Source: Vulcanimicrobiaceae bacterium
GTDB lineage: Bacteria > Vulcanimicrobiota > Vulcanimicrobiia > Vulcanimicrobiales > Vulcanimicrobiaceae
Length of the DNA: 23,897 nt
NCBI GenBank assembly: GCA_046262595.1
Contig: JBHEMM010000025.1
Coordinates: forward strand, 13,159-37,055
Direction of reading: 5' to 3'
A program made the position numbers and the translations under genes. Positions 562 through 11,255 of the stretch are shown here, piece after piece. The notes beneath the pieces are model-generated. The model ran no database searches, had not been told where the DNA came from, and saw only the letters and a program-made list of their open reading frames with translations. Position 1 is the first letter of the stretch, and each line of letters starts with the position of its first letter.

Positions 562-981
562 TTAAAGGACGCGTTTGTCGTCGGGGTTGTCGTGCGGCGA
601 TGCGATAAGAATTGCACGGATGGGGCCGCTGCCGGTGGATTTGATTTCAAATGCCGTATTGCGCGGGACGGAAATCACCGAGCCCGGCTTGAGGGCGAAC
701 GTCGGATAGCCGACCGAGGCAATTCCCGAGCCGCTTACGATATAGAGCAGATCGTCTTGCTTCGTGTAGACTTGCTTGGGCAGACGCCCGATTTCGAGAG
801 CGAGCACGTCGCCTGCGGAAGCGTGCATGATTTTCGATGCGACGGTGCCGTTGCTGTCCGGCGTCATCGCGGCGAATATCGATGCGGAATCCGCGCTCGA
901 CGGCGATTCTTGTGCGTGCACTGCAAGCGCGCCGAAGCCGAAAAGTGCGAGGGCAGCTGCGATAGGAATGAGTTGCTTCAT
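562..981 (-). CDS. Exported cupin-fold protein
   Basis: Sec signal peptide MKQLIPIAAALALFGFGALAVHA|Q. Cupin pattern LLYIVSGSG...LKPGSVISVPRN. RBS AGAGG 5 nt before the ATG. Confidence 0.8.
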   Translation of the reverse strand: MKQLIPIAAALALFGFGALAVHAQESPSSADSASIFAAMTPDSNGTVASKIMHASAGDVLALEIGRLPKQVYTKQDDLLYIVSGSGIASVGYPTFALKPGSVISVPRNTAFEIKSTGSGPIRAILIASPHDNPDDKRVL

Positions 982-1030: not shown

Positions 1031-1846
1031 TCATAACGGCGGTAAGCTGCGCAGCCACGCGGGCTCGTTCCGGTGCTCCGCCACACGTTGACGCACGGCC
1101 CGGATAAGCGAACGTCCCTCGAGTGCATCGCGCATTGCGGCCACCGCTTCAAGCGCCCGCGGATCGCCGGATCGCCAGGCCGCTTGCGTTTGCGGCGCCC
1201 ACAGGCACACTGAACCGGAGATGCAGCCCGCGAGGCCGTCCTCGAGAGCATTGGAGAGCAGCGCTTCGGATCCTGGGAAAACGGCAACCGCCGGATCGAG
1301 CGCATGAATCGCGCGTTCCAGCTCCGGCTTGTTCGAACTGTCCTTCAAACCGCAGATGATTCCGGGAAATTCCCGCAGCAAACGCCCGCAGAGCTCCGGC
1401 TCGAACGTAATGCCGCTCATGCGCGGGAAATTGTAGAGCATGATGCTCTGCTGCGGCGGATTCACTCGCGAGAAGAGCGCGTCGAAAAAAGCGGTGATGC
1501 CGTCCGCGCTCGCGTCGCGGTAATAGAATGGCGGGATGATCAGCGCCGCACGGTAACCGCACTCGAAAGCCGCGCGCGTGAGCAGCACGGCATCGCCCAG
1601 TGCGCTGGCGCCGGTGCCGGTCATGAGGCGATCGCACGGAAGCGCAGATGCGAGGGATTGCATGAAGCGCAGACGTTCGTGAAGTCCGAGCGACATCGCT
1701 TCGCCGGTGGTGCCGAGCACGTTCAAGCCGTCGCAGCCGTTTGCGAGCAGATCGCGATAGTACGGGATTGCAAGCGCACTGTCCGGGCGCAGACTCGAGT
1801 CGAACGGCGTGAGAACGGCGGCGATGATACCGCGCACGACGCTCAC
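1031..1846 (-). CDS. DapA/N-acetylneuraminate-lyase family class I aldolase (probably not a true DHDPS)
   Basis: Motifs TPF, GTTGE, PPFYY, LYNFP and the Schiff-base Lys in GLKDSS. The GTG start overlaps the upstream TGA (GTGA, 1843-1846). Confidence 0.9.
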   Translation of the reverse strand: MSVVRGIIAAVLTPFDSSLRPDSALAIPYYRDLLANGCDGLNVLGTTGEAMSLGLHERLRFMQSLASALPCDRLMTGTGASALGDAVLLTRAAFECGYRAALIIPPFYYRDASADGITAFFDALFSRVNPPQQSIMLYNFPRMSGITFEPELCGRLLREFPGIICGLKDSSNKPELERAIHALDPAVAVFPGSEALLSNALEDGLAGCISGSVCLWAPQTQAAWRSGDPRALEAVAAMRDALEGRSLIRAVRQRVAEHRNEPAWLRSLPPL

Positions 1847-2835
1847 CGTCCGGTCGCGCCTTTAAGGAAAAACGCGAGATTTGCGGGCCGCTCGGCGAGC
1901 CGGCGCATCAGGTACGCAAACCAATGCGTCCCAAACGGAACGGCAAGCCGCACACGATAACCGGCCTCGAGCAGCTCTCCCGCAACCGGCGCGCCGATAC
2001 CGTACAGCATCTGAAACTCGAAACGCCCGCTTTTGGGCAAGCCGAGCTGCGCGGCGCGACGCAGCACCCATTCGACGATGCGCCGGTCGTGCGTGGCGAG
2101 GGCGGTGTAGCCTTCGTTGCTCAGCGCCATATCAGCGAGATGGATATACGCGCCGTCAACGTCGCGTTTGTCGGGATAAGCGATCGCCGCCGGCTCCAAA
2201 TACGCGCCTTTCACGAGCCGCACGTTCGGGCGCAGCGGCAACAGCGAACGGAGATCTTGCGCGCTGCGCCGCAGATACGACTGCAAAACGAAACCCACAT
2301 TTTCGAAGCGCTCGTGCAGGCGCCGATAGACGCACAGTGTGGCGTCCACGTAGCGCGACTGTTCCATGTCCATGCGCATGGTGTTGCCGCAGGCTGCAGC
2401 CGCTTGCGCGATGCACGCGGCGTTCGCGAACGCGAGTTCCGGATCCAGATCCAGACCGGCGTGCGTAAGTTTGAATGCGACGTTTGCATCGAGCCCGAGG
2501 CGCGCGAACGTTTGCAGCAGGCCGCAATAGGCTTCGGTCACTGCGGCCGCCTCGGCAGCGCTCGCGACGTTTTCACCTAAGATGCCGCATGCGACCGCAA
2601 AACCGCGCGCATTCAGTTGTGCCGCTACGCGCAGGAAGTCTTCGGCGTTCTCGCCGGCAACGAACCGGCCGGCACCGAGGGCAAATCCGTATTTGGTGAC
2701 CAGCCGCTGCGCGTGCGGGCTGCCCGAGGCGGCAAGGATTAGTGAGCGCAGCGCGGGCAGTACCAGACCACCGCGCCTTCGCGCGAGACCGGAAGCATGT
2801 GGTCGCGTTTGCCGCGGCGGCCGCACTGCGCGCAT
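1843..2835 (-). CDS. Monofunctional proline dehydrogenase family flavoprotein (true start uncertain; homology begins near 2754-2766)
   Basis: Motifs RFVAGE, LGE, FKLT, RMDME, VLQSYL, VRLVKGAY, ATHD, EFQMLYG, YLMRRLAERPAN. The only canonical starts (ATG 2835, GTG 2826) lie inside the upstream ORF. Confidence 0.92.
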   Translation of the reverse strand: MRAVRPPRQTRPHASGLARRRGGLVLPALRSLILAASGSPHAQRLVTKYGFALGAGRFVAGENAEDFLRVAAQLNARGFAVACGILGENVASAAEAAAVTEAYCGLLQTFARLGLDANVAFKLTHAGLDLDPELAFANAACIAQAAAACGNTMRMDMEQSRYVDATLCVYRRLHERFENVGFVLQSYLRRSAQDLRSLLPLRPNVRLVKGAYLEPAAIAYPDKRDVDGAYIHLADMALSNEGYTALATHDRRIVEWVLRRAAQLGLPKSGRFEFQMLYGIGAPVAGELLEAGYRVRLAVPFGTHWFAYLMRRLAERPANLAFFLKGATGR

Positions 2836-2969
2836 GCGTACGTCTTTACCGTCGCACGGCGTGGGGCCGCGTGTCCGCCGCGCGTCGCGCCGTACGCCAC
2901 AATGACGACTGCCGACAAGGCTGCCAGCGGCGCCCAGGCAAAAAATTCGTGAATTGTTTGGCTGCCCAT
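2739..2969 (-). CDS. Small membrane-anchored zinc-ribbon protein, hypothetical
   Basis: 76 aa: hydrophobic segment FFAWAPLAALSAVVIVAYG, then YACAQCG...WYCPRC (two CxxC pairs). Fills the gap between cheR and the dehydrogenase in the same orientation. Confidence 0.7.
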   Translation of the reverse strand: MGSQTIHEFFAWAPLAALSAVVIVAYGATRGGHAAPRRATVKTYACAQCGRRGKRDHMLPVSREGAVVWYCPRCAH

Positions 2970-3011: not shown

Positions 3012-3871
3012 CTACCGCATGCGGCGGTAGATCGGGAAAACCTCGTCGACTTTGCGGAAGACGCCTTCATGCGGCGTTGCGTGGAGCGATTCGGCCGAGC
3101 TTAAACATAAGAATCCGAAGCGCGATAAGCTTTGCAAGAAAAGATTGTGCACGCGGTACTGCAGCGACTTGCTGAATTGCGGCAGCACGCCGCGCGAAAC
3201 AATGCAATGAAACTCGTTCAGCGAGGAGTCGGTGGCCAAGCTGTGCGTGGAGAAGATCATTTGGCGCCGGATCTCCTCGTTGAAGCACACCGTGTCTTCA
3301 TTGAGCTCGCAGTAGTCCGAAAGCGGCGCCTGGCCGCCCGAGAGGCGGTAGTCTCCGGCAAGCTCTTCGATCGAGCCCACGGCAAAGACGCCCTCGCGCG
3401 CGACGGCGAGCGCGATCTCGCTCATATCGGTCGCGTAGATCATGCACTTTTGCAGGATGCCCGCTTCGCGCAGAACGCACGCGATGGTGTAGACGTCCTC
3501 ACCGGTGGAGCACGCCGGGAACCACAGGCGCACGAACGAGTACGTGCGCAAAAACGGCACGACGCGATCGCGAAACGCCTTATAGTATTCGGGCGTTTTA
3601 AACAAACGCGCAGGTGAGAACGACATGGCAAAGATGAATTTGCGCAGCGCGTCCCGGTCGTGCAGCAGCCGCTCCTGCAGGCCGCTGATCGTCTGCACAT
3701 CCTCTGCGCGCATGCGCTCGAAGACCCGGCGTTTGAGCGGGCCCGGAGCGTATTCCCGGAAATCGTAACCGCTCCACCGCACGATCGCTTCAAGCAAAAG
3801 CGAAAGCTCGACGGCCGCGCGTTCTTCGCTGCGGTCATCGGCTTCGCTTAACAGCGGCCCCTTTTCCCGGA

Positions 3872-3887
<16 letters not shown>
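3012..3887 (-). CDS. cheR: CheR-family protein-glutamate methyltransferase homologue (degenerate motifs)
   Basis: GYDFREY...[27 protein letters not shown]. The start overlaps the kinase stop by 16 nt. Confidence 0.88.
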
Positions 3888-9604
<5,717 letters not shown>

Positions 9605-9650
9605 AAAAAGATGAAACGCTCCGTTCGGGCAAGACGTTGCCCATTCTTCA

Positions 9651-9675
9651 TTTCCATTTCGAACTTCTGCCAAAC
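9651..9675 (-). promoter_or_regulatory. Possible SigB/SigF-type promoter for the kinase operon
   Basis: The minus strand reads GTTTGG-N13-TGGAAA, against the SigB consensus GTTTaa-N12-14-GGGwAw, 46 nt upstream of ATG 9604. Confidence 0.35.
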
Positions 9676-9725
9676 ACGGGCTCGCTAGGTTTAGCAAGCT
9701 AGCCGTAATGGGGAGAAGCCCATTG

Positions 9726-11255
9726 ATGCAAGTGCGGAATAACATCGATCCGCTTGATTTGCTTGCGGAGGCGAGCCGTTTGCTGACGGCCTCTTTCGAC
9801 TTGTCCTCCACCTTGCCCAAAGTGGCCGACCTGTGCGTGCGCAATCTCGCCGACTACTGCGCGATTTTTTCGTCTTACGGGGAAGCGGGCGGGGTCACAA
9901 TGGTGGAAGCCGCGGACCAACCCGGCGTGCACATGCACGCCGCAACGCCCGAAGCGCTACCGGCCGTCTTGCGCGAGCACGGGTACGAAAGCATCGTCGC
10001 GTGCCCGATTACCGGGCGCAGCGTTAGCGGAATCTTTGCAATTGCCAACCGCTCGCCGGACGTCTTCGGCGAGGACGTCATCAAGCTCGCCAACATTCTG
10101 GCACTGCAGATCGCGAACAGCCTGCAGCAATCCGTCCTTTTCGAGCGTACGTACCGCGTTGCAGACCGGCTGCAGCGCGCGCTCCTGCCCGAGCATCTGC
10201 CGACCGTTCCGGGAGCGCGATTCCACGCGGCATACCGGCCCGCAAGCGACGAGGCGGAAGTCGGCGGAGACTGGTACGATGCGTTCTGGCTGCCCGATGG
10301 GCGCGTTGCCATCTCGATGGGGGACGTCGCCGGTCACGGTTTGAGCGCCGCGACCATCATGGGCGAAATTCGTCAGGCGATGCGCACAACCGCGGTGTTT
10401 GAACACTCGCCCGCGACTGTTCTCGAACATATCAACAATGTGATTAACCTGCGAAGCGGCATCGGCATGGTGACCGCGATCTTCGCGTACTACGAGCCGG
10501 CCAAGCGGGAACTCACGTACGCCGTCGCCGGCCATCCTGCACCGGCGCTGGCGATCGGCGGTGGGTTTTGCGGTTTTTTGCCCGGCGGCGGCATGCCCCT
10601 CGGCGTCGACGACAAAGTCCAGGCGCGGGATTGGACGATGACCTTGCCGCCGCGCAGCGGCATCGTTTTTTATACGGACGGAATGACGGAATATTCTCGC
10701 GATATCTTCGCGGGCGAGGCGATGCTGCTCCAAGCGAGCGCGCGCGCTTTTGCAGTCGACGGTGCAAACCCGGCGCTCGCGCTGCAAGAGCGCATCTTCG
10801 ATGCAAAAGTGAACCGCGACGATGCCGCAACGCTCACGCTGGCTTGCGAAGACGGCCCTATTGTTGAGACGGCCCGCTTCTCCGCCATCCCGGTCGCCGC
10901 GCCGATCGTGCGTGCGCTGCTTCAGCGCTTCTGCGAGCAGCACGGCGTCGGCGAAGTGCAGACGTTCTCGATCATTACCGCTGCCGGCGAGGCGGTTGCG
11001 AACGCCGTGGAGCATGCATACCGCGGCGACGATCAAGGCTTCTTTTACGTGCGTCCGTCCGTCGAAGGCAATCTCATCACTATCGAGATCGAAGACGGCG
11101 GACGCTGGCGTCCGTTCGCGCCGCGCGACGAACGCGGGCGCGGCATGGTACTCATGTATGAATTGATGGATCGCGTTCGCATCACCTCAACGCAGTCCGG
11201 CACGAACATCATCATGACGACGAGCCGGACGAGCGAAGAACCAGCGCCGCATTGA
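9726..11255 (+). CDS. GAF + SpoIIE/RsbU-type PP2C phosphatase + RsbW-type anti-sigma kinase fusion
   Basis: Linker [13 protein letters not shown]2C motifs VGGDWYD, GDVAGHG, YTDG, RDDA; kinase motifs [26 protein letters not shown] at 9712-9715 favours TTG 9723 or ATG 9726 over ATG 9708. Confidence 0.92.

Follow-up and report, generated by a model that had tools for sequence, protein, structure and literature searches.

Does a bacterium of the family Vulcanimicrobiaceae degrade hydroxyproline by the route that animals use? The question is raised by two adjacent genes in a 23,897-nucleotide stretch of contig JBHEMM010000025.1 (positions 13,159 to 37,055), hereafter called the window. One encodes a proline dehydrogenase (PRODH) homologue that lacks the gating tyrosine, and the other encodes an aldolase. 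From the sequence and genome comparisons described below, we propose with a probability of roughly 0.55 that the pair would catalyze the opening and the final reaction of an animal-type route from trans-4-hydroxy-L-proline, abbreviated trans-4-Hyp, to pyruvate and glyoxylate, with an aldolase non-orthologous to that of animals. The residues, the clade, the linkage and the genome content were observed directly, and the activities are predictions. The features of the pair are as follows.

1843 to 2766, minus strand: monofunctional proline dehydrogenase of the Tyr-less (Ala) clade, 307 residues, with an inferred CTG start.
2584 to 2586, minus strand: Gly61, replacing the Asp of DxLGE (motif ACGILGE).
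2461 to 2463, minus strand: His102 (KLTH versus KLTQ), three residues after the catalytic Lys99 (2472-2470).
1942 to 1944, minus strand: Ala275 (GCC), at the site of Thermus Y275 and E. coli PutA Y540, placed by alignment to Thermus PRODH.
1843 to 1846, minus strand: GTGA overlap of four bases between the PRODH stop codon and the aldolase GTG start codon, read from the sequence.
1031 to 1846, minus strand: class I aldolase of the NAL/DHDPS superfamily, 3B4U-like subfamily, 271 residues, GTG start, not a dihydrodipicolinate synthase (DHDPS).
1337 to 1345, minus strand: Lys168-Asp-Ser170 (KDSS motif), the Schiff-base lysine and the equivalent of HOGA1 Ser198, which contacts the 4-hydroxyl.
1268 to 1273, minus strand: Gly192-Ser193, matched by motif position to the Gly-Ser of HOGA1 (Gly222); the dapA product of the genome has Gly-Asp-Asp.

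The product of the first gene was assigned to the Pfam family Pro_dh (PF01619; E 1.6e-35, 123.5 bits against a cut-off of 27), and its best solved match in a sequence search was the PRODH of Thermus (E 1.8e-67). The predicted model had the (beta/alpha)8 PRODH fold and superposed on 2G37 with a TM-score of 0.91 and a root-mean-square deviation (rmsd) of 1.7, at 43% identity. The CTG at 2766 was chosen as start codon from the N termini of homologues, with GAAGG 9 bases upstream; the alternative of the open reading frame (ORF) caller, an ATG at 2835, would yield 330 residues. The initial annotation had reported that the gating Tyr was replaced by Ala, and alignment with Thermus PRODH confirmed it, as the Ala of the strand-8 motif YRVRLAVPFG (residues 270 to 279) aligns with the Tyr of Thermus YTVRAYVP. 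The protein thus has, in Ala275, the small residue at this site by which hydroxyproline dehydrogenase (HYPDH/PRODH2) is recognized. PRODH2 presumably has Ser there, whereas the window enzyme has Ala, and it is our speculation that His102 might stand in for the hydroxyl contact of that Ser. The loss of the DxLGE Asp amid intact flavin and carboxylate motifs, also reported before, agreed with the sequence: KLT, DME, KGAY, ATHD, RRLAE (RRxxE) and the Glu of xLGE are all present. A third pocket change, KLTH for KLTQ, had been overlooked. With both the gating Tyr and the DxLGE Asp replaced, the protein scored 275 bits with the Thermus-type model NF045947, below the cut-off of 500.

These changes are shared by the relatives of the enzyme. 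Across 119 close homologues, the catalytic and flavin motifs were invariant, residue 275 was Ala in 118 and Ser in one, residue 102 was His in 119/119, and Asp was found at residue 61 in none. Because residues 275 and 102 are fixed to this extent, the variant residues are neither chance nor an assembly slip; assembly error, decay and chance were ruled out as their source by this conservation together with the one-clade tree described below. The PRODHs of Thermus thermophilus (2G37/2EKG) and Deinococcus radiodurans (4H6Q) have the same fold, catalytic Lys, ion-pair Glu and Arg, and RRxxE motif; the window enzyme differs from them by Y275A, D61G and Q102H and in that it is a paralogue whose genome holds a canonical copy as well. 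E. coli PutA Y540S and Y540A (3E2Q-3E2S) carry a small residue at the same site, and Y540S was solved with trans-4-Hyp according to the title of 3E2Q. Those are engineered single changes, whereas the window enzyme belongs to a natural clade in which the Asp and Gln changes co-vary. The available text of PMC3718742, citing Ostrander 2009, states that PutA Tyr540 sets the enzyme's preference of proline to hydroxyproline.

The aldolase overlaps the PRODH gene by the GTGA noted previously, an arrangement that would couple their translation. Its product matched Pfam DHDPS (E 4.9e-31), and its model (pLDDT 93.5) showed a barrel fold with GxxGE, Tyr138 on strand beta-5 and Lys168, which place it among the class I enzymes of the NAL/DHDPS superfamily. 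Its motifs are GTTGE, YNFPRMSG, KDSS and PGSE, with Thr47 at the site of HOGA1 Asn78. A DHDPS role was ruled out by its score with the dapA model TIGR00674 (99.6-100.5 bits, cut-off 206), by Met143 at the DHDPS Arg138 site, by PGSE and by a true dapA elsewhere in the genome that carries the window (G000, 89.7% complete). The initial annotation was right that Arg is missing from the Arg138 site and that PGSE stands in place of GDD, except that an Arg does sit one position earlier, as it does in 105 of the 119 homologues. Identity with the HypD/LhpC deaminase (Pyr4H2C) was ruled out by separation from the clade of GSCGE proteins and by the fact that no PF05544 was found in the 89.7% complete genome; the solved deaminase 4MPQ ranked 23 in the fold search.

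Descent from HOGA1, to which the initial annotation had likened the aldolase, was not borne out, as the protein shares 26% identity with a HOGA1 relative from bacteria and other families fit better. The best solved match by sequence was Agrobacterium 3B4U (E 8.8e-37), with which it shares GTTGE and KDSS and from which it differs by GSE versus GDE. By fold, 3B4U (Z 34.0, rmsd 1.9, 266 residues aligned), YagE (33.2) and a Picrophilus 2-keto-3-deoxygluconate (KDG) aldolase (33.0) were tied within 1, with rmsd values of 1.7-1.9 over 259-266 aligned residues. HOGA1 ranked eighth (Z 30.6, rmsd 2.1, 263 aligned) and by sequence fell outside the best 60. We infer that the window enzyme is a recruited keto-deoxy-acid aldolase, non-HOGA1 by descent. 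Such recruitment is plausible because 4-hydroxy-2-oxoglutarate (HOG) and the 2-keto-3-deoxy-pentonates differ only at C5. Ser170 was kept in 119/119 homologues and also occurs in 3B4U, hence it is not diagnostic for HOGA1; Gly192 was found in 108 of the 119 and Ser193 in 111. The earlier reservation that GTTGE differs from the GSNGE of HOGA1 holds for the window copy, which has Thr, and is a weak one. HOGA1 N78T retains a wild-type Km in the available text of PMC3188589, which also covers the role of Ser198, and Asn occupies this site in seven orthologues (L002, L003, L004, L006, L012, L014 and L024; one GSNGE, six GTNGE) among 30 family loci.

What the rest of the genome holds bears on both ends of the proposed route. 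The presence of a canonical PRODH and a dapA elsewhere, which the initial annotation had marked for checking, was verified. The PRODH, on contig C38, has LDFLGE and RIYVP, and the dapA, on C41, scored 280.6 bits against the cut-off of 206 and adjoins genes for aspartokinase and semialdehyde dehydrogenase. The caveat that neither a pyrroline-5-carboxylate (P5C) dehydrogenase nor an aminotransferase lies in the window stands for the locus, but both are encoded elsewhere in the genome, the former on C39 with a score above cut-off and the latter by seven class I/II matches. In addition, C4 carries a class V glyoxylate-aminotransferase-like gene, and C15 one that is GlcD-like. No proline racemase/epimerase (PF05544) was found in this 89.7% complete genome.

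In the proposed route, the window PRODH would oxidize the C5-N bond of hydroxyproline to give 3-hydroxy-P5C, and loss of the gating Tyr would make room for the 4-hydroxyl. The P5C dehydrogenase on C39 would then produce 4-hydroxyglutamate, which a housekeeping aminotransferase or glutamate dehydrogenase would convert to HOG, and the window aldolase would split HOG through a Schiff base on Lys168 into pyruvate and glyoxylate. Proline itself would stay with the canonical PRODH on C38. The mammalian pathway (HYPDH/PRODH2, ALDH4A1, aspartate aminotransferase and HOGA1, as given in the available text of PMC3958920) likewise has a Tyr-less enzyme of PRODH fold and a DHDPS-superfamily aldolase, whose Ser198 and Gly-Ser have equivalents in the window protein, and its P5C dehydrogenase and aminotransferase steps have counterparts in G000. 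It differs in that the window PRODH is a minimal bacterial barrel, whereas human HYPDH resembles PutA domains in the portion of PMC13155685 available, and in that the window aldolase is non-orthologous to HOGA1, with Thr for Asn78.

We determined how widely the variant PRODH and its partner occur together. In phylum genomes the variant was called by a listed match of E 3e-78 or better, the motif itself being read in the fetched loci only; by this measure 134/301 genomes carry it. In the Vulcanimicrobiaceae, the aldolase lies within 1.5 kb of the variant in 112/118 copies, so that the co-occurrence for which the initial annotation had proposed a check was found. Six copies are exceptions: one sits at a contig end, three belong to genus g28, where the aldolase gene lies at another place, and the other two are those of G204 and of G063, the latter with an internal stop. 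For a second family of this class, nine of ten fetched loci had the pair, and the contig of the tenth stops just past the gene. The pair is kept intact while flanking genes change between genera. In genus g28 (L157, L158), the aldolase gene stands apart from the variant and is in convergent orientation to an aspartate:glyoxylate-aminotransferase-like gene and to a GlcD-type fusion, neighbours that fit with glyoxylate as product. A glutamate dehydrogenase gene is upstream of the variant in six genomes and also flanks a canonical PRODH in L199; as the deaminating step of the pathway it was set aside, given only six genomes and a paralogue absent from G000, and is retained as a hint. Tallies include the unpublished genomes G213 (L029; in the 30 loci and 112 copies) and G233 (in the second-family count); G238 and G248 are among 31 aldolase-only genomes and G517 and G599 among 15 DAO loci, both described below; further genomes of this kind contribute to counts only, and no conclusion hangs on any of these alone. 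Damaged or missing copies of the variant were also seen. It is frameshifted in L162 (G203) and has an internal TGA in L045 (G063), and in genus g8 (L143, L144, L145) its slot between glutamate dehydrogenase and aldolase is filled by a protein of 220-240 residues with no Pfam match and a homologue on C6 of G000.

A wider genome scan confirmed 595 loci, and the best 80 of these, mostly from other phyla, were read (66 of them flanked on either side by 1 kb or more). Residue 275 was Ala in 78, Tyr in one and lost to a frameshift in one; residue 102 was not always His, being Gln in 12, Leu in nine and Asn in one. The names attached to these 80 loci include Thermomicrobiales, Gaiellales/Thermoleophilia, Dormibacteria, Armatimonadota, Bacillota, Acidiferrales and Binatus. 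All trees were quick trees with SH-aLRT support only, and the PRODH trees hold bacterial rows only. In a tree of 102 rows, all 51 with Ala, Ser or Cys formed one clade (SH-aLRT 99), and a second tree gave the same result. Asp61 was found in 92/116 Tyr-bearing proteins versus 1/34 non-Tyr proteins among the 50%-identity representatives of a profile search.

The neighbours of the variant in the same best 80 of 595 loci were then compared with those of ordinary PRODHs. A P5C-dehydrogenase-like gene lies directly beside the variant in ten; the two that were scored (L052, L104) both pass the NCBIfam cut-off for glutamate-semialdehyde dehydrogenase. DHDPS-family genes of several kinds were also adjacent, namely the broad aldolase type of the window in six loci, a Gaiellales subfamily in seven (one partial) and a 3DZ1-like gene in one. 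As a control, no DHDPS-family gene was found within 1.5 kb of a Tyr-type PRODH in 29 loci (27 distinct genes). In the aldolase tree, the Gaiellales, 3DZ1-like, 3B4U-like, DapA and HypD-type groups were apart, with a long-branch warning at the Gaiellales and L083 aldolases. An α-ketoglutarate semialdehyde (KGSA) dehydrogenase-like gene adjoins the variant in one of the 80 loci, and a DAO flavoprotein gene does so in 11, the proteins being more than 70% identical to one another. Their best solved match is 1Y56_B, labelled sarcosine oxidase in the database, which we take to be the beta subunit of the Pyrococcus dye-linked proline dehydrogenase. Thirty further Gaiellales-type loci had the aldolase followed by the variant PRODH in four and by a 1Y56-like DAO gene in 15. 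In those 15 (L339-L362), a YEF-motif aldolase precedes the 1Y56_B-like DAO gene at the place of the variant, possibly a non-homologous swap.

A second Tyr-less clade has Thr for the Asp of DxLGE and Leu for the gating Tyr (SH-aLRT 99-100). In 80 metagenome loci of this clade, the residue at the Tyr site was Leu in 78, Tyr in one and Phe in one; a shared origin with the Ala clade was neither shown nor rejected (p-AU 0.43). One locus, L298 (2161-9323), contains in order genes for a C1-like peptidase, an Xaa-Pro peptidase, a Leu-type PRODH, a GSNGE aldolase, an alanine:glyoxylate aminotransferase (AGT) and an S37 peptidase. The best solved match of its aldolase was human HOGA1 (E 3e-63; next 1.5e-44), and its AGT matched 1VJO at E 2e-121. 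L280 (5001-8236) has the PRODH-HOGA-AGT core in common with L298, and homologues are named Ignavibacteria. Of the bacterial loci examined, these two reflect the mammalian hydroxyproline pathway most clearly. They show that a bacterial PRODH without the gating Tyr and the Asp can occupy an operon mirroring that pathway, which backs the case of the window by analogy only. A plasmid search with the L298 HOGA1 relative gave no match at 1e-45. Elsewhere in the clade, a 3DZ1-like gene was present in four other loci of the 80, and in L274, L277, L281, L282, L283, L288 and L314 genes for an FGGY kinase and for a MIP channel (glpK/glpF-like) lie upstream of the PRODH gene.

Bacteria usually degrade hydroxyproline by an epimerase route (LhpA/HypRE, D-Hyp dehydrogenase, LhpC/HypD deaminase and KGSA dehydrogenase), which likely has its substrate in common with the pair and, in the available text of PMC6608401, also employs a DHDPS-family enzyme. 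It differs from the window in that no epimerase was found in G000 and in that its HypD-type GSCGE proteins form a separate clade. PF05544 was detected in 18/301 phylum genomes and, within the family, in 1/116 other variant carriers versus 12/90 non-carriers (p 2.5e-4). The classic cluster, a Cys/Cys epimerase with a GSCGE deaminase-like gene, was seen in 8/10 fetched in-family loci. L133-L140 (genus g25, G142) combine an epimerase, a GSCGE deaminase-like and a DAO gene in family members without the variant PRODH.

Taken together, the role of PutA Tyr540, the single clade, the canonical PRODH, dapA and P5C dehydrogenase of the genome, the linkage, the neighbours at the 80 wider loci, the control, the Leu-clade operon, the HOGA1-like residues and the in-family rarity of the epimerase support the animal-type route. 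Other observations weigh against it. The side chain of Ala275 offers no hydroxyl contact of its own, and the Y540A and Y540S forms of PutA reportedly still favour proline. HOGA1 orthology of the window aldolase was ruled out by its sequence rank, its fold rank and its low identity, and the HOGA1/AGT operon was seen in 2/80 Leu-clade loci (in 56 of which the downstream sequence extends for 1.2 kb or more), in a clade other than that of the window. No hydroxyproline transporter, regulator or aminotransferase was conserved at the locus of the pair, and malate synthase was not found in G000 at its 89.7% completeness. The p-value overstates the in-family exclusion of the epimerase because 7/13 epimerase genomes are of one genus, leaving few events. 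A racemase-family gene was present in 24/40 variant carriers outside the phylum, so that genome-wide exclusion holds in the family and fails beyond it; a GSCGE gene was found within 1.5 kb in none of ten loci fetched there.

Two further sets of observations weigh against the route. In 14/40 carrier genomes outside the phylum the variant was the only PRODH match, a canonical Tyr PRODH being shown in 20/40, and in another phylum 18 genomes had a variant-like match only (the motif being read in the 30 best loci). A variant that is the sole PRODH suits a proline-capable generalist, although metagenome-assembled genomes are incomplete. Thirty-one genomes have the aldolase without a listed variant PRODH, including g8, where the PRODH was lost in place, g25, with the epimerase route, and G203, with its frameshifted copy; the aldolase therefore has a use without its PRODH partner. 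Sister aldolases adjoin IlvD/EDD sugar-acid dehydratases in L151, L152, L155 and L156, and rhizobial relatives are located in CoA-transferase clusters. A further recurring cluster of sister aldolases (L150, L154, L159, L160, L161) includes a GntR regulator, a TonB receptor, ketopantoate-reductase-like, Gfo/Idh/MocA and peptide-binding proteins.

These points bear on what else the pair might do. The substrate might be a different cyclic imino acid, either ring-substituted or larger (cis-4- or 3-hydroxyproline, 3,4-dihydroxyproline, pipecolate, hydroxypipecolate or thioproline), with the aldolase splitting the matching 4-hydroxy-2-oxo acid. Three pocket changes exceed the need of one hydroxyl, the aldolase is nearest to broad keto-deoxy-acid aldolases, and in L075 a cis-3-hydroxyproline-dehydratase-like gene follows the variant (395 bits, cut-off 500). 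However, the aldehyde dehydrogenases adjacent to the variant in L052 and L104 fit a ring of five members, a true HOGA1 relative is part of the Leu-clade operon, and the most common isomer is trans-4-Hyp according to the available text of PMC3958920; we consider another imino acid unlikely, though worth some weight. The L075 gene itself (locus 8958-11003), of the enolase family, comes after two small ORFs, and the same genome has a second Tyr-less PRODH copy, L201.

A little less probable again is that the variant serves as a second PRODH, relaxed and able to use proline, and the aldolase as a general 2-keto-3-deoxy-acid enzyme, the two being joined by inherited gene order with no shared pathway. 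That the variant is the sole PRODH match of some genomes, where it adjoins a P5C dehydrogenase, that the aldolase persists without it, and that the glutamate dehydrogenase seen upstream in six genomes flanks a canonical PRODH too would all fit. Against this, the pair stays intact while all flanks differ, the Ala clade has three or more unrelated aldolase subfamilies as neighbours versus none at the 29 Tyr-type loci, and Ala275 is near-invariant. Finally, it is very improbable that an N-substituted amino acid (such as a sugar-amine or Amadori-type adduct) undergoes PRODH chemistry and so delivers a sugar-derived keto acid to a sugar-acid aldolase, even though the available part of PMC13155685 has N-substituted glycines oxidized by PRODH and sisters of the aldolase lie in sugar-acid clusters, since the Ala clade has no conserved neighbour that is a sugar kinase, transporter or deglycase and the P5C dehydrogenase neighbours indicate a pyrroline product.

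The remaining features around the pair are these.

2739 to 2969, minus strand: ORF of 76 residues with two CxxC pairs and a hydrophobic N terminus, upstream of the PRODH and overlapping its inferred start by 28 bases.
562 to 981, minus strand: cupin with a signal-peptide-like N terminus, downstream (Cupin_2, E 3.2e-6).

The small ORF gave weak zinc-finger Pfam matches below cut-off and is near the pair in 4/29 other family loci, and the cupin adjoins it in 3/29; both are probably outside the pathway. A promoter scan returned 0 sites, and terminators were below the shuffle level. Further upstream are a hybrid sensor kinase of 1990 residues (3872-9844, minus strand) with many tandem repeats, HAMP-like by inspection, and receiver domains, followed by a CheR methyltransferase (3012-3887, minus strand).

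Our literature search, outside which most subscription papers lay, returned no description of a natural bacterial Tyr-less PRODH or of a bacterial PRODH2/HOGA route. In their available texts, PMC3958920 calls bacterial and mammalian trans-4-Hyp degradation completely different, bioRxiv 505230 assigns no reaction to 3B4U, and PMC13155685 describes human HYPDH/PRODH2 as a hyperoxaluria target without a solved structure. The Tyr-less PRODH is a conserved and apparently undescribed subfamily, whose aldolase partner is fixed in this lineage. Tentatively, and at somewhat less than even odds, the animal-type route may be widespread in uncultured bacteria, with the Ala and Leu PRODH subfamilies acting as hydroxyproline dehydrogenases and four separate aldolase subfamilies, one of them a true HOGA1 relative, recruited for HOG cleavage. 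This reading takes in Vulcanimicrobiota, Actinomycetota, Chloroflexota/Thermomicrobiota, Dormiibacterota, Armatimonadota/Sysuimicrobiota and others for the Ala clade, and Ignavibacteria among others for the Leu clade.

Positions 61, 102 and 275 provide a simple re-annotation rule and allow the evolution of PRODH specificity to be tested directly. If the proposal is true, it would provide the first reaction for the 3B4U aldolase subfamily, and human HYPDH/PRODH2 would gain structural stand-ins in the form of small natural hydroxyproline dehydrogenases. Soil bacteria would also have one more aerobic route, so far concealed by the label of proline dehydrogenase, for an amino acid that is a major one in plant wall glycoproteins and in collagen.

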